55,135 bases of DNA, taken from the UHGV virus genome UHGV-0258472; one strand, written 5' to 3'. The notes beneath the pieces were generated by a model. That model did not search any database and was not told where the DNA came from. It saw only the letters and a program-made list of their open reading frames with translations. The stretch is from a virus. The position numbers and the translations under genes were made by a program. Positions 8,506-50,141 of this stretch are shown in pieces; position 1 is the stretch's first letter; each line of letters starts with the position of its first letter.

Positions 8506-8664
8506 AATGCTCTCTCCTTTTCAGGTGATTTCTACGCATTTCAGCGCTGCCGGATTTTTAAAGAGCATTTTGTTTGCTTGAAGTATACAAAATGGATACG
8601 TGCTAACAAGGTGTAAAGCGCCATTATGTGACATTCATCACACAATGACGCCATTTTGTAAACT

Positions 8665-12143: not shown

Positions 12144-12242
12144 TTTGGCTTCCTCCGCACCGTAAACCTTTCGATTTCGGTTTACATAACGGATATGCGA
12201 TCATAATACAAAATGTATATTTATGTGATCTGAATCACTCTG

Positions 12243-15925: not shown

Positions 15926-16406
15926 GATCTGATCTCCTTATATCCTTGATGATACTTAATAAAAAATCATCTTCGTTAATTGCCGCACTTCCAGCGGCTG
16001 ACCAGATTGTTAAAGAATGGCTTAACATCTTTCAACTAATCCCGCAATCATCGCCGTTTCCGGTGTGACCCTGCTCACTCCAAGCAAGCTGACTCGTCGC
16101 CTTGCGTGCGGTTTCGTGGGGGATGTGACGCTTTAGACACCCCATGCGCCTTGTTATCAGTGCCGCTTTCGGTCCCCCATCGGGGAGTTACTCCACGGTT
16201 GACAAGGTGTTAAGCCTGATTTTTAAAGTGCCAGGAAGGCGCTTTTTGTTTCCTGCCTCCTTCCTTTGATTCGCAATATACGCCCTGTGATATACCGAGT
16301 CAATCCATTTTGTATACTTTTTTAAAATATTTTATATATCATTGATATTTAAATTATAAAAACAGTTTTTTGGTTTACGTTTTGGTTATTTTACGGGCAA
16401 AGAAAG

Positions 16407-17100: not shown

Positions 17101-17200
17101 GTTTGACGCAAGTCACAAAACGTATTTTTCAAGCCTTGATCTTAAAACTCCATTCTGTAAACTTGCAGACAAGGTAAGGCCATACTTGCAAGGATGCAAG
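17101..17200. promoter_or_regulatory. candidate operator/promoter region between divergent repressor and rightward genes
   Basis: Repeated (A)CTTGCA(A)G-like half-sites (tgacgcaagtca, acttgcagac, acttgcaaggatgcaag) in the divergent intergenic region. Confidence 0.4.
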
Positions 17201-29098: not shown

Positions 29099-29275
29099 CG
29101 CAATGACTCCATTATGTTAATTAACGGAATAATTCTACCATTTTGTGATCTATGTTACATTTTTGACTTATACAAAATGTATTTATTGATTTATATCAAT
29201 ATACGAAATGTGGTTTTGTCGGATATTTAAGCCACCGGATGAACCGGATGAGCTAACAAGAACGAGGATTAAAAA

Positions 29276-29524
29276 ATGAAAAACATGTTCAAAGTGGTTT
29301 TATTCGCTGCGGCTGTTGCTCTTACTGGTTGCGCTGTTGACAAAGAAGCTGCATTGCATAACCTGCCAAATAGCGGAGTGATTCCACAAGAAATCGTCTA
29401 TGATGCTAATGGTCATCTTGTATATGACACTGAAAAACTGCCATATACTGGTCAATGGTGTCATGAACTCGATCACAACATGCGCCGCATCGGTAGCCCG
29501 TCGAATTGTGTAGCTAACTACTAA
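29276..29524 (+). CDS. lipoprotein moron (signal peptide plus lipobox LTGC); candidate superinfection-exclusion lipoprotein
   Basis: MKNMFKVVLFAAAVALTGC signal/lipobox; antisense to flanking tail genes; own terminator; ATG 29276 with SD gagga. Confidence 0.6.
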   Translation: MKNMFKVVLFAAAVALTGCAVDKEAALHNLPNSGVIPQEIVYDANGHLVYDTEKLPYTGQWCHELDHNMRRIGSPSNCVANY

Positions 29525-29531
29525 AAGAAAA

Positions 29532-29548
29532 CCCCGCGCGAAGCGGGG
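29532..29548 (+). terminator. rho-independent terminator after lipoprotein gene
   Basis: ccccgcgcgaagcgggg hairpin followed by ttgttttttat. Confidence 0.55.
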
Positions 29549-29555
29549 TTGTTTT

Positions 29556-32500
29556 TTATCCTGAGAATGAACCAGAACCGCGCGACACAATGACGGTCGG
29601 TGAATTTATATATGCCCCCCTACTATTTTGAGCGGATACCCTAATTTTAACTGTAACGCTCTTGCTTGTTACTGCTGATGAATGCATAACAAGGCGCTCG
29701 TCGCCAGCCATCGACAGGCTTTTCTCTGAACTGCCGATGATTATCGTACAGCCACCAAAACCTTTAACGTTTGCCATAACGCAAATGTGTCTGCTGTGCG
29801 CTGCATTGGATGTGTCATTGTATGTAATTGTTTTTTCCAGTACGCCATCGGCTAACCTGCTGACGTCAGCTCCCGTATACATGTTCGCAACGTCACCTAT
29901 AAAGGTTTTAGCCTCAAGCTCGCCAGAGAATTTGCCTTTGTTGGCATGGATTTCCCCCCTTACAACAACGTTGTTAAATTCAGATGCGCCGTCTTTTGTT
30001 ATCCTCCAACCATTCGAACCAGCGACATAGTTTGATGATTTTATTTCATTAACAATTTTAGCCATAGTAATGGCTGCATCCGCAATTTTAGCTGTCCCTA
30101 TTGATGCGTTTTTAATAAATGCTTCTTTCACATACATTGCACCATTAGACACATAGAAAGGCGTTGTATATGTGCCGTTTGCTGCGGTCATTAATACGAA
30201 GCGATCAACAAGGAAAATACACTGCGATTGAACGTTAGTGCCGCTGCCAGTCAACCCAAGCGACATACCTGTCGCGTATTTCATGCCGTTGTTGTCGGTG
30301 GCAATCTTGATTGACCATGACGCATCAACATTACCTTTGAAGTCGGTTAACGCTTTCGATGTTGTCTCGATCGCCGTTGTGTTCCCGTTAACGGTAACTG
30401 TCAACTGATCAATTTTGGTTGATAATGCCTCGTCCGCCGTTGTCATGGTCTGCGACCATTCTGTGATGCTTGAGTTTACCGCTTCGAAAGATGCTGAGAT
30501 CTGGCTGAATTTTTCCGCGCTTGATGCTTCATGCGTAGAAAGTGCTGTGGACACTTCAGATACTTTAGAATTAATCGTACTGGTAAGCGATGAGTTAAGG
30601 CTGCTTATAGCGTCAGTGCGGGCCTGCGTCTCATCTGCAATAGCTTTGTCGATACGGGTCACATTGCTTGTAACCTTGTTATCAAGAGTACTAATGCTGG
30701 CGTTCACTCCGCTAATCGCTTGAGCGCTGGCGTTCGCCTCGTCAGCAATTGCCTGATCAAGACGGTTAACGCTGGCTTCAGTGTCGTTTTCTAGCGTCTT
30801 TATGCTTGCATTAACACTACTTATAGCTTCAGATCTTGCTTGCGTTTCAGTTGCGATCACTTTATCTAACCGTGATATTTCTCCTTTAATGTTTGAGTCC
30901 ATCGTGTTCATTTCTGCCGTGATGGTTTCAAGCGCTTCCGCTGTTGCCTGTTTTTCGTCAGTAATGACATTATCAATACGGTCAATTTGTGCTTTAGTTT
31001 CACTTTGTCCGCGTTTGAACTCCGCTGTGAGAGTGCGCCTTGTCTTTGTCTGAGACAATGTATTATTGATGAGAGCAAGCGAAGCGTTTTGTAGGCTTGC
31101 CCTTGCCATAGCGAGATCACCATCAAGTTTTTCGCTTTTTGCTATTAACTGATCATCGGCTTCTGCTCTTGCGCTTGATTCGTCAGCTATTGCCTGATCA
31201 AGTCTAGAAACGTTGCTTGTAACCTTGTTATCAAGATTTGTCATGCTCGCATTGACATTGCTGATAGCCTGTGCGCGTGCGCTGGCCTCATCTGCGATAG
31301 CTTGATCAAGACGATTAACACTGGCATCTGTTTTACTATCAAGTGCGTCAATATTTGCGCTAACTTCACTGATGGCGTCAGCCCTTGCCTGGCTCTCATT
31401 GGCAATGGCAGTATCTACGCGCGCAATCTCACCTTTGATGTTTTTATCCATCGTGTCGATTTCGGCGGTAATTGTCTCCATTGCCTCCGCTCTTGCTTCT
31501 TTTTCACTGACAATCACGTTATCAATGCGATCTATTTGCGCCTTAGTTTCATAATCCACGTTTTTGATCTGAGCTGTCAGCGTTCTTCTGGTATTAGTTT
31601 GAGCAAGCGAATTATTAATAAGAGCAAGCGATGCGTTTTGTAGGCTTGCTTTTGTCTGTGCCAGTTCATTACCGACATTTTCGTTTGATACCTCTAACGA
31701 GTCGATTCTTACCTCATGTTTACCTATTTCATCGGAGTTTTCTTCGACTTTCTTGTAAAGGTCTTCAGTGTCTTTTTTAAGGGCGCTTGTATCAGCTTTA
31801 ATTGATTCTGTTTCTGTAATTAAATTATCAGTATCAGTTCTTAAGCCTTCAGTTATTCCGCTTAGGGTATCAGTAGCTGTTTTAAGGTCTTGAGTTGCGC
31901 TTTCGATAACGCCAGTGCGATCGCCAAGATCCTTAATATCACTTACCATTTCCTTAAATTGTTCTGAATTCATAACGTCTTTGGTGACGTAATCGCTAAT
32001 TTCATCAAAATTTTCTGTCGGCTTACCTGATGCTTCAACGAAGTCTGACACGCCAAAAGCATTACGTGTACGCACATAAACGTAATAAGTATGGCCCGTG
32101 TTCATTCCGCCGAACGTCCACTGATACCCGCGCCCGGTAAACTGTGCCGCCGTGGTTATTTTTGCCGGATCTGTGATCTGGTTTTCCCCTGCATAGTAGA
32201 ATTCATACGCTGTATCAGTGGTTAGCGTTGTCTTACTTATCGGGTACACGGTAGCCTGAAATACACCTGGCACCCAGTTAACACCTATTGGCGCGGCTGG
32301 TGCACCGATAACAAGATCGACTATGCTTTCAGCGCCTTTCATGCCAGTGTCATTTCTTCCGCGAACTCCTAACGAATATGAACCAGCATCAATACCATAA
32401 AAATCATAACTATATTTCGTAGTTTCATAGCTTTTAACCACCGCACCATCTGCATTATATATGCGGATCTCAAAGGTCATTCGATGCGTTGTTGTCTGTG

Positions 32501-34418
32501 TTTCCCATGTGGCGCGGCATTGAATTGTTTCAGATCCAATGTTTACCACCTTCAGATTTTCAATGTTCGGCACGCGGAAATGGTTAAGCGTGTCATTGTT
32601 GACTTCAAATATTGCGCCTTCATCGACTATCGCTTGTTTGTTAGGGTCGTGCTGTGCGGCCTCGATGGTGTATACGCTGTTATTTTCGGTTTCGGCTACG
32701 CTGGTGATCCTACACAAAACAGGTTTTGCCGCTTCAGTGGATACAGCGAAAACAGTCCCGTTACGTATCCATGCCGGGGCCGCCGCTAAGGTGATCTCAT
32801 TTCCATTTACCCAGGTGATCTGGTGTTTCTTAAATTTGCCATCACTATCAAGCAAACTAATGGTATCGCCTGCGGTGATGTATTCCGAATCAACCTTATC
32901 GACCGTTATCACCTTGCCATTGTTCGCCACGATACGACCGCCTAAACGAGCGCCTGCGCGGTTATTGTCGAGGATCTCGATAATATCCCCTGGCGTAAAG
33001 TGAATCGCGTCGCGTGCCATTTTGAACGTGAATTTTGACGGCTCGCGTTTTGCTGTTTCTATCAGCCATTTACCCGCGCGGTACGCTTGCCCGCGTGACG
33101 TGCACCCGAACGCCTCTAACGTGGTTTCGTTGTAACCATCACGGGCGATCAGTTCATCATCTGCTACATACTCTTTTGATTGCTCCCAGCCGTTTTCCGG
33201 GTCAGTCCATGATACGATCACGGCGTTGTAGCATTCTGCGCGGGCGATACTTGAACGAGTAAACGCGCCATCAACGACATTTGCATTTGTAATGGTGGCG
33301 ATCGGGTCTTGTGGTGCATCAATCATCACGGTAAGGCGTTGCCCGTCCCATAACGCGATACCCCTGAACATCCCGGCGATATTGTCCAGTAAGTCGCGTG
33401 CGCTCATTTGCTCTGTGATGTAAGCGTTAAGCGTCATGCGAGGCTCAAGGCCACCGTAGCCATCATCAACCAACTGGTCGCAGTATTGAGAAAGCGTATA
33501 CAGTGCGCCGTCATCAACGTCAATATAGCCAGCATGACGCGCAAGGCCGAAACGCTCGTTTTTAACCAGGTAACGGAAGATCCACGCAGGGTTATTAGTG
33601 TAAGCCTGTTTCAAGCCGCCAAGCCATAAACCGGAATAAGTGCGCGTTTCCGGGTCGTAGTTATCAGGCACGTCGACAATAAGACCACGCAGGTGATAAG
33701 TGCGTGTAGGCGTGTCGGTGTACTGGTCGTGGTCAATTACCGCGCCTGCTACAGCGGTGTGAGGATAAGATAAATTATCGTCGATTATTTCGCTGTAGCT
33801 ACTCCATCGCGTATCATTTCGCAATAGATCGCTTGCGCTATCAGCAGTTACGCGGCGAACGCGAATATCAAACGGTTTTTCATCCGGCGCGTTGATAATA
33901 TGCGCTTCAAGATATTCTCCGCTGATCTTACCTGGGCCTATAGTGACGTCTTTAACAAGCGCCCACGTAGAAGAAGACGAAGGCTTCACGTCAATCATCA
34001 TCATAACAGATGTATTATGTTGATTGCTTTGCTCGTCAGATTGTACAAGTGAATCGACGCCGATATTCAGGCGCACGCGCGTAACGTTAGGATCTGATAC
34101 AGTCCTGATTATTGGGGTATCGTGTTTCACCTGAGCGTTAACAATAACGGTTGATTCGATGGCGCTAAAACCGTTAATAGGTGATTGATCTAGCGTACCA
34201 TTGCGCCACGCCACGCTAACGCCAGGGATACTGGTATTGCCGTTCGCGTCAGTTACAGGGGTGTCATTAAGCATAATGCTGTTTAATGGCGCTTTCGTAT
34301 TCACAGGTCCATAAATCGGACCTTCTGAAATAATATCCAGTACACGATAAAACTGTTTATGATACAGGTTATCATTTATCAATGTTGGTGTTTTTGCTTT
34401 GCCGCCGCCGCTACTCAT
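29556..34418 (-). CDS. host-specificity / central tail fiber protein (lambda J-like) with extended repetitive coiled-coil C-terminal region
   Basis: 1620 aa; N-terminal region J-like; follows I/K/L homologs; ATG 34418 with SD aggag. Confidence 0.8.
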   Translation of the reverse strand: MSSGGGKAKTPTLINDNLYHKQFYRVLDIISEGPIYGPVNTKAPLNSIMLNDTPVTDANGNTSIPGVSVAWRNGTLDQSPINGFSAIESTVIVNAQVKHDTPIIRTVSDPNVTRVRLNIGVDSLVQSDEQSNQHNTSVMMMIDVKPSSSSTWALVKDVTIGPGKISGEYLEAHIINAPDEKPFDIRVRRVTADSASDLLRNDTRWSSYSEIIDDNLSYPHTAVAGAVIDHDQYTDTPTRTYHLRGLIVDVPDNYDPETRTYSGLWLGGLKQAYTNNPAWIFRYLVKNERFGLARHAGYIDVDDGALYTLSQYCDQLVDDGYGGLEPRMTLNAYITEQMSARDLLDNIAGMFRGIALWDGQRLTVMIDAPQDPIATITNANVVDGAFTRSSIARAECYNAVIVSWTDPENGWEQSKEYVADDELIARDGYNETTLEAFGCTSRGQAYRAGKWLIETAKREPSKFTFKMARDAIHFTPGDIIEILDNNRAGARLGGRIVANNGKVITVDKVDSEYITAGDTISLLDSDGKFKKHQITWVNGNEITLAAAPAWIRNGTVFAVSTEAAKPVLCRITSVAETENNSVYTIEAAQHDPNKQAIVDEGAIFEVNNDTLNHFRVPNIENLKVVNIGSETIQCRATWETQTTTHRMTFEIRIYNADGAVVKSYETTKYSYDFYGIDAGSYSLGVRGRNDTGMKGAESIVDLVIGAPAAPIGVNWVPGVFQATVYPISKTTLTTDTAYEFYYAGENQITDPAKITTAAQFTGRGYQWTFGGMNTGHTYYVYVRTRNAFGVSDFVEASGKPTENFDEISDYVTKDVMNSEQFKEMVSDIKDLGDRTGVIESATQDLKTATDTLSGITEGLRTDTDNLITETESIKADTSALKKDTEDLYKKVEENSDEIGKHEVRIDSLEVSNENVGNELAQTKASLQNASLALINNSLAQTNTRRTLTAQIKNVDYETKAQIDRIDNVIVSEKEARAEAMETITAEIDTMDKNIKGEIARVDTAIANESQARADAISEVSANIDALDSKTDASVNRLDQAIADEASARAQAISNVNASMTNLDNKVTSNVSRLDQAIADESSARAEADDQLIAKSEKLDGDLAMARASLQNASLALINNTLSQTKTRRTLTAEFKRGQSETKAQIDRIDNVITDEKQATAEALETITAEMNTMDSNIKGEISRLDKVIATETQARSEAISSVNASIKTLENDTEASVNRLDQAIADEANASAQAISGVNASISTLDNKVTSNVTRIDKAIADETQARTDAISSLNSSLTSTINSKVSEVSTALSTHEASSAEKFSQISASFEAVNSSITEWSQTMTTADEALSTKIDQLTVTVNGNTTAIETTSKALTDFKGNVDASWSIKIATDNNGMKYATGMSLGLTGSGTNVQSQCIFLVDRFVLMTAANGTYTTPFYVSNGAMYVKEAFIKNASIGTAKIADAAITMAKIVNEIKSSNYVAGSNGWRITKDGASEFNNVVVRGEIHANKGKFSGELEAKTFIGDVANMYTGADVSRLADGVLEKTITYNDTSNAAHSRHICVMANVKGFGGCTIIIGSSEKSLSMAGDERLVMHSSAVTSKSVTVKIRVSAQNSRGAYINSPTVIVSRGSGSFSG

Positions 34419-34432
34419 GGCTTTTTCTCCTG

Positions 34433-34963
34433 TTAACTTACAACGTCTAAGGCGTCTTTATTGTTTGTTGTGTCTATGCCTAACGATCCGACGTTTGAAC
34501 CCACTTTCATTTCGCCCAATAAAATTGGCACTGGTCTACCCTGGCCCACCCTGTTTTCTATGCTGGTGTAACTGTTGTTTGTTATGGTGTTATCCTGTGC
34601 GCTTTCTGATGATGTTTTCACCTTCATGTTGCGAGACATGAAAATAGAAAATGCGACACTAACAACTGATATTCCGATCATAATCCAACCGATCACACCG
34701 ATCCCTGCAATACCACCTTCCACTATTGGCGCAATAATTACCGTAGTCCCATCTGGATATTTGCTATTAACCGCAGCGGGCGCGGTCTTTTCGTCGTAAT
34801 CTTTCCCGGCAATTCGTAAACGCAAAGGTGTATTTAAAAACGCCTTCTTGAATTCCTGATTCTGCGCGGTCAACAAGCGAAGTCCTTGTGCTGGCGTTTC
34901 AACGTTTAAATACACTTTGCTGTAATATCTTCGAAGATTGCCCGTAAATCTAAATTTGAGCAT
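34433..34963 (-). CDS. tail assembly protein (lambda I-like)
   Basis: Position between K-like and J-like genes; hydrophobic central segment and C-terminal region typical of gpI. Confidence 0.65.
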   Translation of the reverse strand: MLKFRFTGNLRRYYSKVYLNVETPAQGLRLLTAQNQEFKKAFLNTPLRLRIAGKDYDEKTAPAAVNSKYPDGTTVIIAPIVEGGIAGIGVIGWIMIGISVVSVAFSIFMSRNMKVKTSSESAQDNTITNNSYTSIENRVGQGRPVPILLGEMKVGSNVGSLGIDTTNNKDALDVVS

Positions 34964-35637
34964 TTATCAGATCTCCATATTGAATGCGTTTGTCGAACAT
35001 AAGCGGGCCGCATTTGCTCGCGGCGGCTTAGCAGTCCGGCATTGTCATGATGCAAAACAGTGTTATCTCCCAGGTAAATCATCGCGTGGCATGGGTCAGC
35101 ACCCTTGAACGGCTGCCGGATAATTACATCTCCAGGCTGGATGCTTTGCGCGTCAACCTGATAAAACCCGTTTAGCGGCAAGTTTTTTAAATACAGGTTT
35201 TCACCACGCAACCACCACCCATCAAGGCGCTCGAAGTCGGGCAGATCCACGCCGCAAAGGTGATAGGCGTCGCGGAAAAGCGCGTAGCAGTCTGTTTTCC
35301 CGTGTTCAAATTTTCTGCCTAACAGGTGCGCTACCGGACGGAATTTCCTGATCCTTCCGCCTGAATACAAAAGCCAGGGTAGCCCTGAAATAACTTGCTG
35401 TTGTCGATCCCGTGCCGACAATACCGGAATATCATCAACGTGAGAGTGAAAAACGGCGGTTATAACGCCCAATTCGTCAGCTTTGATGTAATCGTCCGGC
35501 GAAATTTTGAAGCTGTTGTATGGTGTTTCAGACACGTTAGCGCACGGGTAAAAATATTCGTTATCTATTACCAGTCCGCAAACTTCTTCAAACTGATGCG
35601 CGGCGGCATAACGCAACATTTTGTCTTCCATTACCAT
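34906..35637 (-). CDS. tail assembly protein (lambda K-like; MPN/JAB plus NlpC/P60-like)
   Basis: AVFHSHVDD (MPN-type HxH) motif and Cys/His peptidase region; start chosen at ATG 35637 just after L-like stop. Confidence 0.65.
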   Translation of the reverse strand: MVMEDKMLRYAAAHQFEEVCGLVIDNEYFYPCANVSETPYNSFKISPDDYIKADELGVITAVFHSHVDDIPVLSARDRQQQVISGLPWLLYSGGRIRKFRPVAHLLGRKFEHGKTDCYALFRDAYHLCGVDLPDFERLDGWWLRGENLYLKNLPLNGFYQVDAQSIQPGDVIIRQPFKGADPCHAMIYLGDNTVLHHDNAGLLSRREQMRPAYVRQTHSIWRSDKCSNLDLRAIFEDITAKCI

Positions 35638-35639
35638 GA

Positions 35640-36344
35640 TTAACCTACCTTGCTGGAACCAGGGAAACAGGAGATTGGTAGCGGATTTGGACGCGGGAAA
35701 CGCAAACGACAACCGCTTAGACGGTGGCTGCATCTGTCGGCTTTAGGATCGCTTGTCGGCTCGTCTTTATCGTTTGCCACTGGTCCGCCAGAGTACATAC
35801 ATCCGTCGCCTCTGTATTGCCACTGGCAAACGTCAGCAAGGATGGTGCGCCCAGGGATAACGGCCTTATCAGCATCAATTGGCGTTGACAGCTCATATTG
35901 CACCTGATCCGCTGTTTCCTCGCTCATGGCCTCCACGACATAAAAAGATACAGCCTCAATAGATGGATCTGCGTCTGGATTGCCGTTATGGAAGTTAACA
36001 GCGTCCAGGTATTTTACTTCCACCTGGCGGCGCGTTACCTTCATTCCTCTAAGGTCGTTGAAATCGTTATTCATCCCCGTAATAAGTCCGCCGATGTTGG
36101 CTACAACCATTTGGGGACGTGAGTAAACGCCTTCGTTTTTCATTTCGAAGCCAGTCGCTTCGATCGGGTAGCTGTTGTAAGCTACTCCCTTCCAGATAAC
36201 CGGGCCGTAATATCCATTCGCGCCGGAATGGAAGCGGATAACCTCGCCTCCCAGTGGCGTAAGGTCCAATTCAAACAAGTCAATTACCGCGCCGACTCCG
36301 GCATCTACGGAATCAATAATCATCTCTGTAGGTATATTGCGCAT
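35640..36344 (-). CDS. minor tail protein (lambda L-like)
   Basis: C-terminal Cys cluster and RFPRPNPLPISCFPG motif typical of gpL; ATG 36344 with SD aaaggtga. Confidence 0.7.
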   Translation of the reverse strand: MRNIPTEMIIDSVDAGVGAVIDLFELDLTPLGGEVIRFHSGANGYYGPVIWKGVAYNSYPIEATGFEMKNEGVYSRPQMVVANIGGLITGMNNDFNDLRGMKVTRRQVEVKYLDAVNFHNGNPDADPSIEAVSFYVVEAMSEETADQVQYELSTPIDADKAVIPGRTILADVCQWQYRGDGCMYSGGPVANDKDEPTSDPKADRCSHRLSGCRLRFPRPNPLPISCFPGSSKVG

Positions 36345-36473
36345 TTTCTCACCTTTCGCTTTTTTGTGATCTGCATCACGCTAAATCATACCGAAATGGT
36401 TGATCGCGCTTTTTACAATATGTATATTTTACTCAAACGAAGTGGTAGTTAACAAAATGGCGCGGGGTGATTT

Positions 36474-36638
36474 ATGGTTGCTAAATTGTGGAAGCTAACA
36501 CTATTCATGAACGATGGAAGCGAAAGACTGATTGCACTATATGACGACGAAGGCGAGGCGCTAATAGACGCGCTTGAGCTTTCTGAGGATAGCCGCGTTT
36601 TGGGATACAGAATTAAACCTGTAAAACGTGAGGTTTAA
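36474..36638 (+). CDS. hypothetical small protein (54 aa), moron cassette B
   Basis: ATG 36474 with SD ggggtga; antisense to tail genes. Confidence 0.4.
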   Translation: MVAKLWKLTLFMNDGSERLIALYDDEGEALIDALELSEDSRVLGYRIKPVKREV

Positions 36639-36642
36639 CAAA

Positions 36643-37044
36643 ATGCAAAAGTATCGTCTCGATGTATGGATGGCAGGAAGTAATGACTGGGAAGGTTACG
36701 GATTGCATGATAGTTACGAAATGGCGGTAGAGGAAGGGGAAAAACTTGTTCGCTTCTTCGGTCGCGCCAGGGAATTCAGAATAACTCCTGTACAAATAGC
36801 CGAGAAGGTGGAAGAGATGAACCCGAAAGATATTAACTTTAACGTCAATGTTGATTTTGCTGATTCTATGGATCAGTCTTGCCCTGGTGAAATACACGCA
36901 AAAGGTTTCCCGGCAGACGATCCAGAAGCAAAACGCGAATACGAAAAGCGGCAAAAGATTTCTGTATCGATAACCTGGGCGCGTTCGATAAATAAGGTGG
37001 CAGTATGGCGCGGCGTAATCACGGTGATTATGTGTACACGTTGA
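36643..37044 (+). CDS. hypothetical protein (133 aa), moron cassette B
   Basis: ATG 36643 with SD gtgaggt. Confidence 0.45.
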   Translation: MQKYRLDVWMAGSNDWEGYGLHDSYEMAVEEGEKLVRFFGRAREFRITPVQIAEKVEEMNPKDINFNVNVDFADSMDQSCPGEIHAKGFPADDPEAKREYEKRQKISVSITWARSINKVAVWRGVITVIMCTR

Positions 37045-37253
37045 AACAGGCCGCCCGCCTTATCGGTTATCATGAACACGAATTTATTGATTTGCTGATT
37101 GAGCGCGGGATACTGTACCAGGTCTGTTTAACACTGTACCCAAAAGCGAAATACCTACAGGAAAAGTTATTCATCATCATGACGGATGAAAACCAGGTTA
37201 ATCACTCATTCGTCACTGATAAGGGGTTAACATACTTAAGGGAAACATTATGA
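37005..37253 (+). CDS. small HTH DNA-binding protein, moron cassette B
   Basis: ATG 37005 with SD aaggtgg; LKQAARLIGYHEHEFIDLLIERGIL HTH-like segment. Confidence 0.45.
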   Translation: MARRNHGDYVYTLKQAARLIGYHEHEFIDLLIERGILYQVCLTLYPKAKYLQEKLFIIMTDENQVNHSFVTDKGLTYLRETL

Positions 37254-37332
37254 TATGTGTGATCACTACATATTAGAAGTGATTATTATAATAATAGGAT
37301 TATTGTTTATTCTGCTATCAACAATGTAAAAC

Positions 37333-37349
37333 CCCGCTTCGCGCGGGGT
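37333..37349. terminator. bidirectional-looking GC hairpin terminator
   Basis: ccccgcttcgcgcgggg flanked by T-rich sequence on both strands. Confidence 0.45.
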
Positions 37350-37354
37350 CGTGT

Positions 37355-37540
37355 TTATACGCCATCAAGTAAGAATAAAACTTCCTTGCCTTCTCTCGAT
37401 CTGCATCCAACATAACCGTCACCAACATCATGAAGATACCATGTATCACCATTATCAGCTTTTACAGTAAGATCGTTGATCTCGTAGTCGTCAAACAATG
37501 TAAAAGCGCCCGTGCGGTCAACTACACAAATACCATACAT
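37355..37540 (-). CDS. small protein of the early-region paralog family, located inside the tail cluster
   Basis: ATG 37540 with SD ggaggt; GDTWYLHD / hydrophobic-D-x-G motif shared with 2406..3354 genes. Confidence 0.4.
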   Translation of the reverse strand: MYGICVVDRTGAFTLFDDYEINDLTVKADNGDTWYLHDVGDGYVGCRSREGKEVLFLLDGV

Positions 37541-37551
37541 ATTAACCTCCA

Positions 37552-37905
37552 TCATCTGACGACTTGCTCAAATGTTGCGTTTAGCGTGCATACCGGGCCG
37601 TCTTTCGTCATGCTCCACTTTCTACATACAAAAAGCCTTTGCACCCCGTCAGTGGATGGAGTCCAGTAAAACGCCTCGACCGCGCAACGTGCTCTTAAAA
37701 ATGCGTCAACCTGTAGCGCTACGTTTCCGTCGTCACCGCATCCGGCGCTCGTACCCTTAAAGACCAGCGTATAGCTATCAAGTAAAGGGTTAATCCCTTT
37801 TGTCTGCCTCTGTTCATACCCATCACCCAGTTTAATGACAGACACGTTAGGCTCACTGTTTACGCTGTAGCTTCTTTGTGGTGTCCATCGGAACACTTCA
37901 GGCAT
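37552..37905 (-). CDS. minor tail protein (lambda M-like)
   Basis: 117 aa; N-terminal EVFRWTP motif typical of phage minor tail protein M; ATG 37905. Confidence 0.65.
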   Translation of the reverse strand: MPEVFRWTPQRSYSVNSEPNVSVIKLGDGYEQRQTKGINPLLDSYTLVFKGTSAGCGDDGNVALQVDAFLRARCAVEAFYWTPSTDGVQRLFVCRKWSMTKDGPVCTLNATFEQVVR

Positions 37906-38072
37906 AAAACCCCCTATAAGTTACATTTTGTATATACCTTTACGCGATTCTACGCGAAAAATGAGATCTTCATCACAATGATTATAGCCAGTTTTCAAAA
38001 TGGCTTCACTTTGGAAATCACATATTGTATACAGAAAGCAAATAAGAAAGACGTTGCACAAAGGGGGATGTT

Positions 38073-38327
38073 ATGAAACTGGTAGCGATTGACAAAAACC
38101 TGAAAGCACAGAAAAACGCACAGGACCGGATCATCAAGAAAGGCAAGGAACTTCTTAAAGCATTTTTGAAGAAAGAAGCCCACCCCAAAAAGTTACGCGA
38201 CGGATACGGTTTTAAATTTGACATCAACCCAGATTGGCGGCTGTTCAGTGAAGACCTCAAGGTATGGTTAATCATCGATCATCTTGAATACAACAGGCAC
38301 TGCGGAGTCAAAGGGGCGCATAAGTGA
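38073..38327 (+). CDS. hypothetical basic protein (84 aa), moron cassette A
   Basis: ATG 38073 with SD agggggat. Confidence 0.45.
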   Translation: MKLVAIDKNLKAQKNAQDRIIKKGKELLKAFLKKEAHPKKLRDGYGFKFDINPDWRLFSEDLKVWLIIDHLEYNRHCGVKGAHK

Positions 38328-38335
38328 GGCGTGAT

Positions 38336-38428
38336 ATGGAAGACGATAAATTCACCTGGCGTGAGATCTGGAACATCTGGCAAGTGATGTTTGCTCGCAG
38401 CTACATAGCAAGAAACGGAAGATTGTAA
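38336..38428 (+). CDS. micro-ORF (30 aa), moron cassette A
   Basis: ATG 38336 with SD gtgagg. Confidence 0.3.
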   Translation: MEDDKFTWREIWNIWQVMFARSYIARNGRL

Positions 38429-38481
38429 TTTGCGGAGGAAAATAAAATGAAAACCCGGCAAATAAAAGCAATGTAAAACGT

Positions 38482-38616
38482 ATGGCCTGGATCGTAAAAT
38501 GGATGGATAGTAAAGGAGATACATATACTGAACCATTTTTCAAACATACTGACGCAGTATTTGCAAGAAGTGTAAGAGGCGGGAAAATTGAAAGAGGATA
38601 TACAAGTTTTGAGTAA
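38482..38616 (+). CDS. micro-ORF (44 aa), moron cassette A
   Basis: ATG 38482; no clear SD. Confidence 0.25.
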   Translation: MAWIVKWMDSKGDTYTEPFFKHTDAVFARSVRGGKIERGYTSFE

Positions 38617-38654
38617 ATTTATTTATGTGATTAATAGCACAGTGGAGATTGATA

Positions 38655-38834
38655 ATGATTATTAACGAAACGGAAGAATGCAGACGTATTACTCTTAGCA
38701 TTGAGTATGACGAAAGATTATGGCTTGAGTGCGACTGCGAATTGATCGTAATAGATAAAAAGCAAGCCGCAGAACTAATAAAGGCATTACAGCTTTATGT
38801 AAACGGCGAATTTAAAAATGATGAAATTGAATAA
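38655..38834 (+). CDS. hypothetical small acidic protein (59 aa), moron cassette A
   Basis: ATG 38655 with SD agtggaga (ORF-track first codon is TTG). Confidence 0.4.
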   Translation: MIINETEECRRITLSIEYDERLWLECDCELIVIDKKQAAELIKALQLYVNGEFKNDEIE

Positions 38835-38841
38835 AAGATAA

Positions 38842-38860
38842 CCCCGGCACAATGCCGGGG
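38842..38860. terminator. bidirectional rho-independent terminator between cassette A and tape measure gene
   Basis: ccccggcacaatgccgggg hairpin with T-runs on both strands. Confidence 0.55.
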
Positions 38861-38866
38861 TTATGT

Positions 38867-41206
38867 TTATTTGCGACGAGGTTGTAATATTCCGCCTGGT
38901 CTTTGTGATTCCCTTGTTATCATTTTCATTGCTACACGTTCCATTGTCTGCTCAAGTCTGCGGCTGTCATCGTCGCTAAATCCGTTTGTGGTCTGAATGT
39001 TGATATTGACAGGCATACTAATGCCGCCGCCACCGCCAATATCACGCCCAGGAATAATTCTGCCATTCTCGCCAGGGATCATATATTGATTTCCGTTAGA
39101 TGTCTGGAATAGCTCCGGCCTGTTGTGTTCCCCTACACGGTACATATTGCCACCAATGACGCTACCACCATTAAAGCGTCCTCCGCCAAAAATTGACGTC
39201 GCCAGCGACATGATCGCAGAAAGCGCCGCCGCACCAGCCGCCGCCCAGCTACCACCAGTTGACGCAGCCGTTGCCGCCGCTGCCGGGGCCGCCGCCGCAG
39301 CAATCTGGCCTTGTGCCGCTACCGCGCCAGCCGTGGTACTTGCCTGCGTTGCCTTGCTTTGTGTCTCCATCATGATTTGATCTGCTATCCAGTCAGCGGC
39401 TATATCTGAAAGTCTGCTACCAATATTGCCGAGGATATTGCTACCTAAGTTAGCAAAAACATCGCTCAATGATTGAGTACCGTTTAACAGACCAACAAGC
39501 GCATTGCTCATACCACCTTTAAGGCCATTAACGCAATCACCGATCAGGCCGTTAGTGTCGCTTTGCGCCTGCCATTGCTCCCACTTCAGATCGCGGATCT
39601 GCTGCTCATAGGCTAACAATTCCTGTTTCTGTTGCGCTTCGGTAGCCCCCAGGTCGATAAGCATTTGCTTACGAATTGCCCATTCATTCTGTACCTGCTG
39701 AATAGGGTCAACCTCGCCTTTTAGCTGGTCCATCGGGCTAACTATTTGCGACCATTTATCACGCAATTCATCTACAGGGATTTGCGCTAATTCTTCCTTC
39801 AGTTCCTTGCCTATCCCTTTTTGCGCGGCGCGGTACTCAAGGATGGTGATTTTACCCTGGGCGAATGCAGCATCAATGGCCTTGCCGTTCTCTAATGCTT
39901 TGCGCATGGCGGCGGCGTCTTTGTTGTACTGGTCAGAAACGCTTATGCCTTTGTCACCAAGCCGATCAGCTTCTGATTTCTTCTCTTTTTTCGGTTTTTT
40001 CGGCTTATCAACTGGCTGATCGAATCCGGTGATCTTGCCGTCGTTAGCCTCACCCTGTTTCTGCATGAACTCATCATAAGCGGCAGTCGCGTTTTTAATA
40101 TCGTTTGCAAACGTCATAACCTTGCCGACGGTAGGGCCGAATTTTTTCTCGTTGTTGCTGTTTAGCTCTTCCTTGCGTTTATCGACAATTTCCTTCATCC
40201 ATTTGTAGCCATCCATTAGCGCTTTTATTGGCGTTACCATTCTAATGATCTCTTCCGCCACCTCACCAGCCTTAACAGCCACGTCGTCAAACATGTCGAT
40301 GAATTCGCTACCAGCCGTTTTGAGTGTATCGAAGCATGTTTTAGCAAATTTAGCGCCCTCGCCAAGTCCTTTAACGCCCTTCGTGATTAAGTCGATAGCT
40401 GATACCACGCCGTCTGATACGCCGAAAAGATCGTCCAACTGCTCAACAAGGCCCATGATCTCTACTTTAAGCTCATTGATAGCCATACCGGATGTGCGCG
40501 GCAACTGAGCAAACTTATCGTTTGTTTCCTGCGTAGCCGCCTGGATCGCGTTGACCATCCTTTCAGCCGTGATCTTGCCGTCCAGCATTTCTGCGCGGAA
40601 CTGGCCCATTGATAATCCCATCTGGCGGGCCATTGTCTGTACGATGGTCGGGGTGTTCTCAAGAAGGCTGTTGAATTCTTCAGCACGGAGTACGCCGCCG
40701 TCGATAGCCTGGCGGAACTGGCGCATTGAGTTAGACATCTGTTCCGCTGATGCACCACCTAACGCTCCCATTTTCTGAATAGTGCCAACAAGGTTAAGTA
40801 ACTGGCCTTCAGTAGCGGATGTGTTCTTTAATGAGATGGCAAGTCCTTGCCATAATTCGCCAGTATCTTTCAGGCTCTGGCCTGTTTCTTTCGATATTGC
40901 TTTCAGGCCGTCGAAAACCCGTCCGGCGGACTCCGCATCGCCAGTAAGCATTTTGATTTTTACGCGTAGCATTTTTGCTTGTTCCGCCATATCCATAAAT
41001 TGGCGCACTGCTTCCGCAGCAAGTAGCAGATGGATGACCCTGGTCAGTGCTTTGATGGATGTTTTCAGGGTGTTTACCTGGCGGTCAGCCTGTTTTGCGC
41101 CGCGCTCTATACGGTCAAAGGCCTGGTCTGCCTGTCGTTGTGCAACGAGAAGTTGACCAGTTTTTGCATCAACCTCGTAATAAATTGTACCTACACTGGT
41201 AGCCAT
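38867..41206 (-). CDS. tail tape measure protein
   Basis: 779 aa, Ala/Gly/Gln-rich with long helical segments; position upstream of M/L/K/I/J; ATG 41206 with SD gaggt. Confidence 0.8.
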   Translation of the reverse strand: MATSVGTIYYEVDAKTGQLLVAQRQADQAFDRIERGAKQADRQVNTLKTSIKALTRVIHLLLAAEAVRQFMDMAEQAKMLRVKIKMLTGDAESAGRVFDGLKAISKETGQSLKDTGELWQGLAISLKNTSATEGQLLNLVGTIQKMGALGGASAEQMSNSMRQFRQAIDGGVLRAEEFNSLLENTPTIVQTMARQMGLSMGQFRAEMLDGKITAERMVNAIQAATQETNDKFAQLPRTSGMAINELKVEIMGLVEQLDDLFGVSDGVVSAIDLITKGVKGLGEGAKFAKTCFDTLKTAGSEFIDMFDDVAVKAGEVAEEIIRMVTPIKALMDGYKWMKEIVDKRKEELNSNNEKKFGPTVGKVMTFANDIKNATAAYDEFMQKQGEANDGKITGFDQPVDKPKKPKKEKKSEADRLGDKGISVSDQYNKDAAAMRKALENGKAIDAAFAQGKITILEYRAAQKGIGKELKEELAQIPVDELRDKWSQIVSPMDQLKGEVDPIQQVQNEWAIRKQMLIDLGATEAQQKQELLAYEQQIRDLKWEQWQAQSDTNGLIGDCVNGLKGGMSNALVGLLNGTQSLSDVFANLGSNILGNIGSRLSDIAADWIADQIMMETQSKATQASTTAGAVAAQGQIAAAAAPAAAATAASTGGSWAAAGAAALSAIMSLATSIFGGGRFNGGSVIGGNMYRVGEHNRPELFQTSNGNQYMIPGENGRIIPGRDIGGGGGISMPVNINIQTTNGFSDDDSRRLEQTMERVAMKMITRESQRPGGILQPRRK

Positions 41207-41455
41207 AATTTAACCTCATACAAAATGTGATCTATGTCTCTATTTTATACAAAATGGCTTCATTTCAACGAATACATTTTGTATAAAGAAGGTGAAGGAT
41301 GAGAGAGATAAAAGAAGGTCGAAGGATATAAAGGATTAAGACTTGAAGCACAGCTAACCGATGGAACGAGGGAGGCGAAAACCCCTAAAACTAAGGAAAC
41401 AGCAAAGGGATTTAAAAGGCCGGATTAACCGGAGGAAGCAAAAGAGGATAAGAAA

Positions 41456-41545
41456 ATGAAAAACGTAAACTACCGCCCCAACGAACATGAACGCTATGCG
41501 GACTTCATCGAAGAAATGTTAAAAGCACTTAAAAACAAAAATTAA
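41456..41545 (+). CDS. micro-ORF (29 aa), moron cassette C
   Basis: ATG 41456 with SD agaggata. Confidence 0.35.
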   Translation: MKNVNYRPNEHERYADFIEEMLKALKNKN

Positions 41546-41556
41546 GCGAGGCGCAC

Positions 41557-41664
41557 ATGGATACCATCAAAAGCATCATAGAAGTGTATATATCAGCATG
41601 GGTGGCTTTTAATGTAATGGCTGTATTCGTGCTGGCATTAACAATAAAAGGCGAATGTAAATAA
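41557..41664 (+). CDS. small hydrophobic peptide (35 aa), moron cassette C
   Basis: ATG 41557 with SD gaggcg; single TM-like segment. Confidence 0.35.
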   Translation: MDTIKSIIEVYISAWVAFNVMAVFVLALTIKGECK

Positions 41665-41675
41665 GGCGGTGCATC

Positions 41676-41978
41676 ATGGAACTAGTAATTCTCTTTATTG
41701 GATTTGTGGTAACTATGGTTGTAGCCGAGAAAAAACATCTTAATATGTTCCTTGCATTTATTGGCGCTCTGATTTGTTGGCCTGCTGTATTGATTTACGC
41801 CCTATGCGTCAACAAGAAGATGTTTAAACACTACATAGATGCTTTAACTTTCGTCAACATGGAGTTTTCTGACGCAACTGACGTACAGAAAGCACAGATC
41901 GCGACTTATCTTTACGATAACGTGTACACAGTCCATGATTTAGAAGAGGCAAGATGGCGCTTTGCAGCATACAAATAA
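41676..41978 (+). CDS. small membrane protein (100 aa, two TM segments), moron cassette C
   Basis: ATG 41676 with SD aaggcggtg; hydrophobic N-terminal half. Confidence 0.5.
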   Translation: MELVILFIGFVVTMVVAEKKHLNMFLAFIGALICWPAVLIYALCVNKKMFKHYIDALTFVNMEFSDATDVQKAQIATYLYDNVYTVHDLEEARWRFAAYK

Positions 41979-41986
41979 AAATAAAG

Positions 41987-42004
41987 GCCCGGTTAATTCC
42001 GGGC
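41987..42004 (+). terminator. rho-independent terminator after cassette C
   Basis: gcccggttaattccgggc hairpin followed by tttttcttg. Confidence 0.55.
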
Positions 42005-42685
42005 TTTTTCTTGCTTGCGATTTTTCATTCTTTCCAGTGCCTTTTTAGCGGCCTCCATTTGCTCATCATAAGCACGTTTATTTATGTGAACATTTGGCTT
42101 GCTTCTCTCGTTTCTTTCGTCTGGCGGCGTTTTAGCGCGCACAGCGGCCCTGTATCCGGTCATTGTCATATTCCACGCTTCTGATTCAGATAATCCCAGG
42201 TGAGCTACGGCAGAATAAACGAATTCAAGGACGTCAAATGTCGGCTTATATTCACCTTCCCGGATCTCCCCAGCGTATTCTTCCGGTCCATCACCGATTA
42301 AACCGTGGTACATGCAATGCTGCGCAAGCGTGATGACGTCATCAGTAGGCATCAATCCGGGTTTTAGTCGTAACTTGCCAGAAGGAGTAAACCAGCATTC
42401 GCCAAGCAATGGCCCTGTTTCCTCTTCTGAGCAACATTTCAGGATGCGCATAGATGTTTGCACTATCTCACCATAACACCGCGCCAGAATGCGATTGCGT
42501 AGGTCTGGATCTGCTGGCAATCGTGATGGATATTTGCCACCGTGGATGGTTGCGAAGTATTCTACCAGTTCTCTGTCACTGCCGATCTTAGCCATTGCAG
42601 CGAAGCAGGGATTAAACACATACCGCCTGCCATCGACTACAGCCGCAAATTGTCCAGTTCGAACATGAATCATAGCTTTCACCAT
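41993..42685 (-). CDS. putative tail assembly chaperone (by position between major tail and tape measure genes)
   Basis: Position only; start may be ATG 42673. Confidence 0.35.
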   Translation of the reverse strand: MVKAMIHVRTGQFAAVVDGRRYVFNPCFAAMAKIGSDRELVEYFATIHGGKYPSRLPADPDLRNRILARCYGEIVQTSMRILKCCSEEETGPLLGECWFTPSGKLRLKPGLMPTDDVITLAQHCMYHGLIGDGPEEYAGEIREGEYKPTFDVLEFVYSAVAHLGLSESEAWNMTMTGYRAAVRAKTPPDERNERSKPNVHINKRAYDEQMEAAKKALERMKNRKQEKARN

Positions 42686-50063: not shown

Positions 50064-50141
50064 AATGTTTACTCCTGAATACATGTTTACGCGTTGCTAC
50101 GCGAAAAATAGAAAAATTCGTGAGGGATTGTGAGGCAGATT

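Follow-up and report, generated by a model that had tools for sequence, protein, structure and literature searches.

Morons of lambdoid phages, reportedly described by Juhala, Hendrix and colleagues in 2000 with HK97 gene 15 beside the tape-measure gene and lambda lom and bor among the examples, are extra DNA in the late structural module, lying between genes that adjoin each other in relatives and having a promoter-like region, a terminator, deviant composition and variable content. The virus genome UHGV-0258472, of which the whole stretch of 55,135 nucleotides (nt) is referred to here as the window, contains a block of about 960 nt with the same attributes (positions 37906-38866, the cassette). 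It consists of small plus-strand genes between the minus-strand tape-measure and M-like genes, which are adjacent in relatives, and has its own terminator and a base composition unlike that of its neighbours. The cassette differs from the lambdoid morons in that it opposes the late operon, holds up to five small genes and has its first two genes fixed group-wide rather than occurring sporadically; its expression in the prophage is only predicted. On balance, we read the cassette as a self-contained moron operon inserted antisense at the tape-measure/M junction, with a core product, encoded by open reading frame (ORF) 1, that is a stand-alone effector with a toxin fold. Morons and RelE/ParE-fold proteins are both known kinds, and the genes are already in the databases as hypothetical proteins. 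What is new is the build of the cassette from a core and a flexible part, the disappearance of a gene (ORF0) from cassettes that keep ORF1, the case against a classic toxin-antitoxin pair, and a regulatory module common to the antisense islands of this genome. We found no study in the literature on the cassette, on the Pfam family PF24732 to which ORF1 belongs, or on morons controlled by the cyclic AMP receptor protein (CRP).

At positions 37800-38950, the top match of the window was a prophage of Escherichia coli strain UMNK88 (97.7% identity), and seven cultured phages (MagusPhagus, mEp010, mEp013, mEp021, mEp044, mEp515 and mEp554) matched the region at 81-89%. By these matches the window is a mEp021-type (mEpimmI) temperate siphophage of E. 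coli. For comparison, 55 related loci were collected from annotated genomes and IMG/VR, giving 56 loci with the window; a second sample of loci was seeded by the M protein and is hence independent of ORF1. The four plus-strand ORFs listed in the original prediction, which had been made from the sequence alone, are present at 38073-38327, 38336-38428, 38482-38616 and 38655-38834, each preceded by a Shine-Dalgarno-like sequence (for ORF1, GGGGG at 38063-38067, 5 nt before the ATG). The ratio of nonsynonymous to synonymous polymorphism (pN/pS) across the relatives was 0.12-0.22 in the annotated frame of every ORF versus 1.2-2.3 in the other two plus-strand frames. A conserved minus-strand ORF was ruled out, as stops occur in every minus frame across the ORF1 region in the relatives. 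Because pN/pS is low only in the annotated frame and no minus frame is open across ORF1, the pattern marks the ORFs, including the 30-amino-acid (aa) ORF2, as genuine protein-coding genes under purifying selection.

The tape-measure and M genes are separated by 681-1393 nt in all mEp021-like loci. At 22 of the 48 loci whose M protein is 63-69% identical, the two genes meet directly (gap -4 to +8 nt), and the remaining distant loci contain unrelated small cargo at this position, namely a same-strand gene of 70-73 aa, an opposite-strand gene of 75-79 aa or an opposite-strand gene of 132 aa. Since distant relatives have either a direct junction or unrelated cargo, the cassette is inserted accessory DNA, as had been proposed, and by the same comparison the junction is an insertion hot spot, in other phage groups too. 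The G+C content, said in the original prediction to be lower than that of the flanks, is 0.35-0.46 in the cassette versus 0.47-0.59 in the tape-measure gene and 0.47-0.50 in M, and the GC skew switches sign across the cassette. Conserved homologues of structural genes at this position, which would have indicated bona fide tail genes, were looked for in the related phages and not found; in the relatives the same small genes recur in mosaic combinations, and no cassette gene of the window or of the relatives resembles a structural protein in Pfam or PHROGs.

The gene content of the cassette varies around a single constant gene. ORF1 is intact in 55 of the 56 loci. In the M-seeded sample, all 31 mEp021-like loci have ORF1 and 29 of them have ORF0 as well, with neither found in any of 49 more distant loci. 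ORF0 (51 aa), with phrog_29810 as its sole family, is the ancestral first gene of the cassette and lies 18-20 nt upstream of ORF1 in 52 of the 56 loci; the minimal cassette consists of ORF0 and ORF1 and is that of 12 loci, in which the gap measures about 685-737 nt. Other cargo in the relatives includes a zinc-ribbon gene in mEp021 and an HNH-motif protein annotated under the cassette match in the mEp515 record. The accessory reading is thus to be amended: across the M-seeded loci ORF1 is not optional, and the cassette of the window lacks ORF0. The latter gene is cleanly missing in four loci (the window, UMNK88 and two viral contigs), in all of which ORF1 is intact. In the window, ORF1 occupies the position at which ORF0 starts in the relatives, behind a leader of equal length; ORF0 and ORF1 both open with ATGAAAC behind a G-rich ribosome-binding site, and such short repeats make a deletion from one to the other plausible. 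The third ORF, too, is altered. In the relatives ORF3 is a 56-aa gene, but in the window it is frameshifted by a 1-nt deletion in the A-run at 38450-38453, found only here among the 56 loci, leaving a 9-codon stub (38447-38476) followed by a 44-aa remnant from the internal ATG at 38482. The small gene that the original prediction placed there therefore exists as an ORF with coding sequence under selection, but is the remnant of a longer gene. Either a recent mutation or a sequencing error in the homopolymer may account for the frameshift. Taken with the loss of ORF0, it marks the cassette of the window as a derived form in this comparison.

ORF1, correctly described earlier as an 84-aa basic protein, matches the Pfam family ParE_like (PF24732) with 42.6 bits (gathering score 24.4; E 6e-11) over profile positions 2-67, i.e. 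66 of 67 positions, and its relatives bear the RefSeq name 'ParE family toxin-like protein'. A profile search of 1.84 billion representatives with the ORF1 family retrieved just 11 proteins, indicating that the family is small. The structure model of ORF1 (predicted local distance difference test score, pLDDT, 88.6; an earlier model from a shallow alignment, with pLDDT 54, was unusable) has a core consisting of a strand, a helix and a three-stranded sheet, and its best structural matches are toxins of the RelE/ParE superfamily. The model thus supports ORF1 as a member of the RelE/ParE fold, with its subclass, RNase or gyrase poison, left unassigned by sequence. Full invariance is confined to K40, L41 and R56, with K23 and H70 coming close to it. 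An hhalign comparison with YoeB was weak (E 0.065) and paired R56 with the Arg of the YoeB HRLVY motif, which we take to be Arg65. The viral structures closest to ORF1 are from the Yersinia phage fHe-Yen9-04 and the Klebsiella phage RaK2 (template modelling score 0.70-0.83), both of which we take to be lytic jumbo phages. Their PF24732 proteins are likewise small, stand-alone phage proteins with a near-identical predicted fold, but share only 22-25% identity with ORF1 and have a different genomic setting. More distant ParE_like members occur in an Enterobacter island beside SbcC-like, ParB-HTH and AlpA-like genes and among small-gene strings in a 101-kb phage contig; no conserved neighbour gene was found in the loci examined.

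RelE/ParE type II toxins include YoeB, YafQ, RelE, HigB and ParE, as well as the prophage-borne three-component PaaR-PaaA-ParE systems of E. coli O157:H7. ORF1 resembles them in being small and basic and in its strand-helix-three-stranded-sheet core, and the small acidic ORF0 upstream of ORF1 in the relatives mimics the antitoxin-toxin order. It differs from them in that i) the model has a single long helix in place of the usual helical hairpin, ii) ORF1 matches none of the solved toxins significantly in sequence, iii) its catalytic or gyrase-binding residues are not assignable, and iv) it has no recognisable antitoxin and is retained where the gene upstream of it is lost. Nothing meaningful was retrieved when the PDB sequences were searched with profiles of ORF1 and ORF0.

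The cassette is closed by a two-way intrinsic terminator, which begins 3 nt past the ORF4 stop and 2 nt past the tape-measure stop. The original prediction of a strong bidirectional terminator that also ends the tape-measure gene holds, although the hairpin is larger than claimed (38838-38864 versus 38842-38860). The stem has 12 pairs, 7 of them G-C, with a 3-nt loop, folds with -24.8 kcal/mol on the plus strand and -22.3 kcal/mol on the minus strand (z-scores -7.6 and -6.3), has a U-rich tail on either strand and is conserved in the relatives. The loop (38850-38852) is CAA in the window and UMNK88 and its reverse complement, TTG, in most relatives, on an identical stem, suggesting inversion of the whole hairpin. 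No known RNA family was detected in the block with Rfam, the sub-threshold hits being on terminator hairpins only.

Upstream of the genes lies a non-coding control region, correctly noted before as motif-rich, which in the 47 distinct relatives exceeds the coding sequence in conservation. Its elements are, in plus-strand order, the complement of the M ribosome-binding site, a CATTTTGTATA box, TTTACGCGaTTCTACGCGAAAAAT, a CRP-like palindrome, an invariant ATTATA (37981-37986), AGTTTaCAAAATGGC, TTCACt, a variable 11 nt, CAwaTTG and TATAyA. In the palindrome, conservation is 0.8-1.0 over the half-sites and falls to 0.5-0.8 over the variable spacer; the predicted sigma-70 promoter has two conserved hexamers around a spacer that varies in its middle part. 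Sites with at most one mismatch to TGTGA-N6-TCACA number 8 in the window, about six-fold the 1.37 +/- 1.24 in shuffled sequences; the one directly upstream of ORF4 (38626-38641) is not conserved in the relatives. These sites were ruled out as phage-repressor operators, the immunity region having a different repeat, CTTGCA.

The tail module is broken four times by antisense islands: beside J, near L/M, at the cassette, and between the tape-measure gene and the chaperone-like DUF6246 gene upstream of it. A 41-nt element is common to the cassette (37996-38036) and the region ahead of the tape-measure/DUF6246 island (41250-41290). The layout of the cassette recurs ahead of that island, with a CRP-like site at 41226-41241, a -35 at 41259-41264 and a -10 at 41282-41287 (site centre at about -60.5), and ahead of the L/M island, with the site at 36365-36380, the -35 at 36400-36405 and the -10 at 36423-36428 (centre at about -62.5). 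In CRP class I promoters such as lac P1, the centre of the site reportedly falls at -61.5, -71.5 and the like (Busby and Ebright). The cassette is similar to promoters of this type in having a TGTGA-N6-TCACA-like palindrome at about -70.5, a weak -35 and an A/T-rich stretch from the site to the -35, and differs from them in that its start sites are only predicted and its left half-site is TGAGA. It is quite possible, on the basis of these motifs, that the predicted cassette promoter is subject to CRP-type class I activation. As the starts are predicted, the hexamers are weak and a consensus scan missed the promoter, promoter and CRP control are something that we infer.

The island beside J (29100-29555) contains a plus-strand lipoprotein gene (29276-29524, 82 aa, lipobox LTGC) between J and an 853-aa fibre gene, a terminator hairpin at about 29535-29555 and, upstream, three CATTTTGTATA-type boxes together with a CRP-like site at 29144-29159. 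Its product is a member of the Lpp family of superinfection-exclusion lipoproteins. According to the report on the mEpimmI phages, Lpp expressed from a plasmid excludes superinfecting phages, and the lpp genes lie within the structural cluster of these phages (PMC11893012); the text of that report does not discuss the other antisense islands and does not name the cassette genes among the virion proteins. The Lpp islands occur in the same phage group and, like the cassette, have a plus-strand gene between minus-strand tail genes, a hairpin terminator, and upstream CATTTTGTATA boxes with a CRP-like site, but consist of a single lipoprotein gene with demonstrated exclusion (PMC11893012), whereas the cassette proteins have no signal peptide and are known here from sequence. 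A role in the lysogen is favoured for the cassette because Lpp is the only functional precedent.

From these features we suggest the following scheme. The island would be transcribed from its own weak host-type sigma-70 promoter, possibly helped by the CRP-type activator site about 70 nt upstream, and, having a promoter of its own, would be expressed while the late operon is silent, i.e. in the lysogen and before late transcription begins. The shared terminator would prevent island transcripts from entering the tape-measure gene, and strong late transcription converging from the tape-measure gene would switch the island off; expression of M, L, K, I and J would then depend on late transcripts that read across the terminator. 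ORF1 would most likely be a stand-alone effector acting on a host target of the RelE/ParE fold, either ribosome-bound mRNA or DNA gyrase, and its activity is probably mild or conditional, rather than that of a lethal toxin under an obligatory antitoxin. The likely benefit, by analogy with the Lpp exclusion gene of the island beside J, would be protection of the lysogen or phage against competitors.

Several observations sit badly with a moron operon built on a stand-alone effector. ORF0 is directly upstream of ORF1 in nearly all loci, and the minimal cassette comprises exactly these two genes. PADLOC, run with the four proteins of the cassette at E up to 1, returned zero matches. The left half-site at 37962-37977 is TGAGA and not TGTGA, so that a different factor might bind; the -35 and the -10 both agree with the consensus at just 4 of 6 positions, and the promoter is absent from the results of the strict consensus scan. 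Finally, ORF1 is core in the group and its family occurs in phages presumed to be lytic, a pattern that is no less compatible with a function in lytic growth than with a benefit to the lysogen.

The close association of ORF0 and ORF1 is what a classic type II toxin-antitoxin system would give, with ORF0 as antitoxin, ORF1 as toxin, and prophage addiction or abortive-infection defence as the purpose. Such a pair would agree with the order of the genes, their sizes and charges (ORF0, 51 aa, pI 5.1; ORF1, 84 aa, pI 9.8) and the spacing of 18-20 nt, and also with the fold and the 'ParE-like toxin' label of Pfam and RefSeq. For the window, this explanation takes the form of an orphan toxin that survives through weak expression or neutralisation by, for example, ORF2, and ORF2 is indeed kept in every locus without ORF0. 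However, no cognate antitoxin gene is present beside ORF1 in the window, where ORF0 is deleted, and ORF1 is undamaged and free of unusual substitutions in the viable strain UMNK88, which has cleanly lost ORF0 and whose complete genome has no copy of it anywhere, while 33 other genomes have one. A type II toxin is not expected to be kept without its antitoxin, and the partners are expected to co-evolve; here, four loci have ORF1 without ORF0, and the ORF0 and ORF1 distances are uncorrelated (r = 0.04), ORF0 instead tracking its other neighbour, M (r = 0.51). A single ORF0 allele pairs with three ORF1 types that are mutually only about 62% identical. In addition, ORF0 belongs to no antitoxin or DNA-binding family, matches no solved structure and occurs only in the mEp021-type phage group; distant ParE_like members, some in phages that we take to be strictly lytic, lack a conserved partner; and the absence of a PADLOC match counts against this explanation as well. 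In view of the loss of ORF0, the absence of correlation and of an antitoxin family, and the lack of a conserved partner, we consider a classic toxin-antitoxin pair improbable and a stand-alone effector likelier.

It is also conceivable that these are early genes of the lytic cycle, transcribed by host RNA polymerase right after infection or induction, modifying host translation or DNA topology, and switched off by late transcription, with no benefit to the lysogen. The universality of ORF1 in the mEp021-like group, the host-type predicted promoter, the ParE_like relatives among small-gene strings in the 101-kb contig, the nearest viral structures in presumably lytic jumbo phages, and an ORF3 homologue in a similar small-gene array (contig L017) all fit this account. 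Yet the cassette lies within the late structural module, distant from the early region, and it is built like the neighbouring Lpp island, the product of which is active in lysogens. We regard an exclusively early lytic role as unlikely, to about the same degree as a classic toxin-antitoxin pair. That the block works mainly through RNA or transcription, an antisense effect or the terminator tuning the ratio of tape-measure to distal tail proteins, or that the ORFs are unrecognised tail-assembly factors, is very improbable, for although the terminator abuts the tape-measure stop, late transcripts traverse about 960 nt of antisense DNA, and the non-coding region by M is highly conserved and has elements in common with the region upstream of the portal gene, all ORFs are under strong protein-level purifying selection, gene content varies freely among viable phages, relatives with the direct junction make tails without the block, and neither an Rfam family nor structural-protein homology was found.

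Table 1. Features of the cassette, its control elements and the surrounding tail genes in the window
Feature	Position	Strand	Description
ORF1	38073-38327	+	84 aa, basic, pI 9.8; RelE/ParE-superfamily fold; constant gene of the cassette
ORF2	38336-38428	+	30-aa Trp-rich peptide; intact in 33/56 loci; pN/pS 0.12 in frame, ~1.5 out of frame
ORF3	38447-38616	+	56-aa gene in relatives, frameshifted in the window; pN/pS 0.19
ORF4	38655-38834	+	59-aa acidic protein, pI 4.4; phrog_13627, E 3e-10; ~24/56 loci counting divergent versions; pN/pS 0.22
Two-way intrinsic terminator	38838-38864	both	Hairpin with U-rich tails, common to ORF4 and the tape-measure gene
Non-coding control region	37906-38072	+	Near-invariant in 47 distinct relatives; also carries the M ribosome-binding site on the opposite strand
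CATTTTGTATA box	37924-37934	+	Second cassette copy at 38021-38031
TTTACGCGaTTCTACGCGAAAAAT element	37939-37962		Two TACGCGA repeats 10 nt apart, or imperfect palindrome; conserved in relatives
CRP-like site TGAGAtcttcaTCACA (TGAGA-N6-TCACA)	37962-37977		1 mismatch to TGTGA-N6-TCACA; centre ~-70.5 from predicted start
CRP-like palindromes	8627-8642, 12224-12239, 16064-16079, 17102-17117, 29144-29159, 36365-36380, 37962-37977, 38626-38641		Most adjoin intergenic CATTTTGTATA boxes
Predicted sigma-70 promoter	38005-38033	+	-35 TTCACT 38005-38010, 17-nt spacer, -10 TATACA 38028-38033; start expected ~38040
Tape-measure protein gene	38867-41206	-	779-aa ORF; named tape measure protein in relatives; right flank, outside the cassette
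M-like minor tail protein gene	37552-37905	-	Pfam Phage_min_tail PF05939, 101.4 bits; 'phage tail protein' in relatives; left flank, outside the cassette
L	35640-36344	-	Tail gene
K	34906-35733	-	Tail gene
I	34433-34963	-	Tail gene
J	29556-34418	-	Tail gene

The remaining cassette proteins gave little in the library searches. NCBIfam matched no cassette protein, ORF1 was the sole protein with a Pfam match, PHROGs returned function-unknown families only (for ORF1 and ORF4), and no library gave a functional assignment for ORF0, ORF2, ORF3 or ORF4. ORF2 had no family match in NCBIfam, Pfam, PHROGs or PADLOC; it was ruled out as a membrane peptide, not being hydrophobic (grand average of hydropathicity -0.59). 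ORF3 is intact in 29 loci and reached 16 bits, under the threshold, with Pfam Phage_ORF5. The unrelated phage-like contig L017, composed of small same-strand genes, has a homologue of it (positions 312-539, 75 aa) with 58% identity over 43 aa, at a distance of about 2.3 kb from a ParE_like gene. ORF1 and ORF3 therefore form part of a wider pool of small phage genes shuffled between genomes.

The 11-mer CATTTTGTATA is present in the window in 18 copies with at most one mismatch versus 1.97 +/- 1.3 expected (e.g. at 2372, 8584, 8652, 12205, 16306, 19935, 29169, 37924, 38021, 41246 and 41275). Nearly all copies are intergenic and they occur on both strands; some form the end of the spacer and the -10 of predicted promoters and others abut start codons of late genes. 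No one role accounts for every copy. The box was ruled out as an extended -10 element, since its TG is one base out of register. The sole paralogue of TTTACGCGaTTCTACGCGAAAAAT is at 50086-50109, upstream of the portal gene. The two copies of this 24-nt element, TTTACGCG(a/t)T(t/g)CTACGCGAAAAAT (37939-37962 and 50086-50109), both precede a late gene on the minus strand by 20-60 nt, the first copy M and the second the portal gene.

Three further regions of the tail module are worth describing: 1) The island near L/M (36345-37350) encodes ORFs at 36474-36638 (phrog_29559), 36643-37044 (phrog_38567) and 37005-37253 (KilAC/ANT domain, 30.9 bits), with a terminator at 37331-37349. 2) A 66-aa minus-strand gene (37355-37555, phrog_3249) is an additional small gene of the tail operon, located after M and before this island. 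3) The tape-measure/DUF6246 island (41207-41992) contains plus-strand ORFs at 41456-41545 (29 aa), 41557-41664 (35 aa, hydrophobic) and 41676-41978 (100 aa, with two hydrophobic segments), with a two-way terminator at 41983-42008; by position it recalls the HK97 gp15 membrane moron.

A wider interpretation, which we consider doubtful, is that PF24732 comprises phage-specific RelE/ParE-fold effectors that have no antitoxin and serve temperate and lytic phages alike, and that the cassette of the mEp021-type phages is one of three or four antisense islands with paralogous promoters responsive to CRP (carbon starvation), by which the prophage would switch on a battery of exclusion or host-modifying genes according to host physiology, the battery being silenced by converging late transcription. 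The mEpimmI phages, which carry the cassette as a fixed feature of the group, are reported to be as frequent as lambdoid phages in human faeces (PMC11893012). Morons are where temperate phages keep genes that change the host, for exclusion, defence or virulence, and the toxin-fold family of ORF1 appears to function without an antitoxin. If true, the shared CRP-type control of the antisense islands would tie the expression of prophage accessory genes to the nutritional state of the host.

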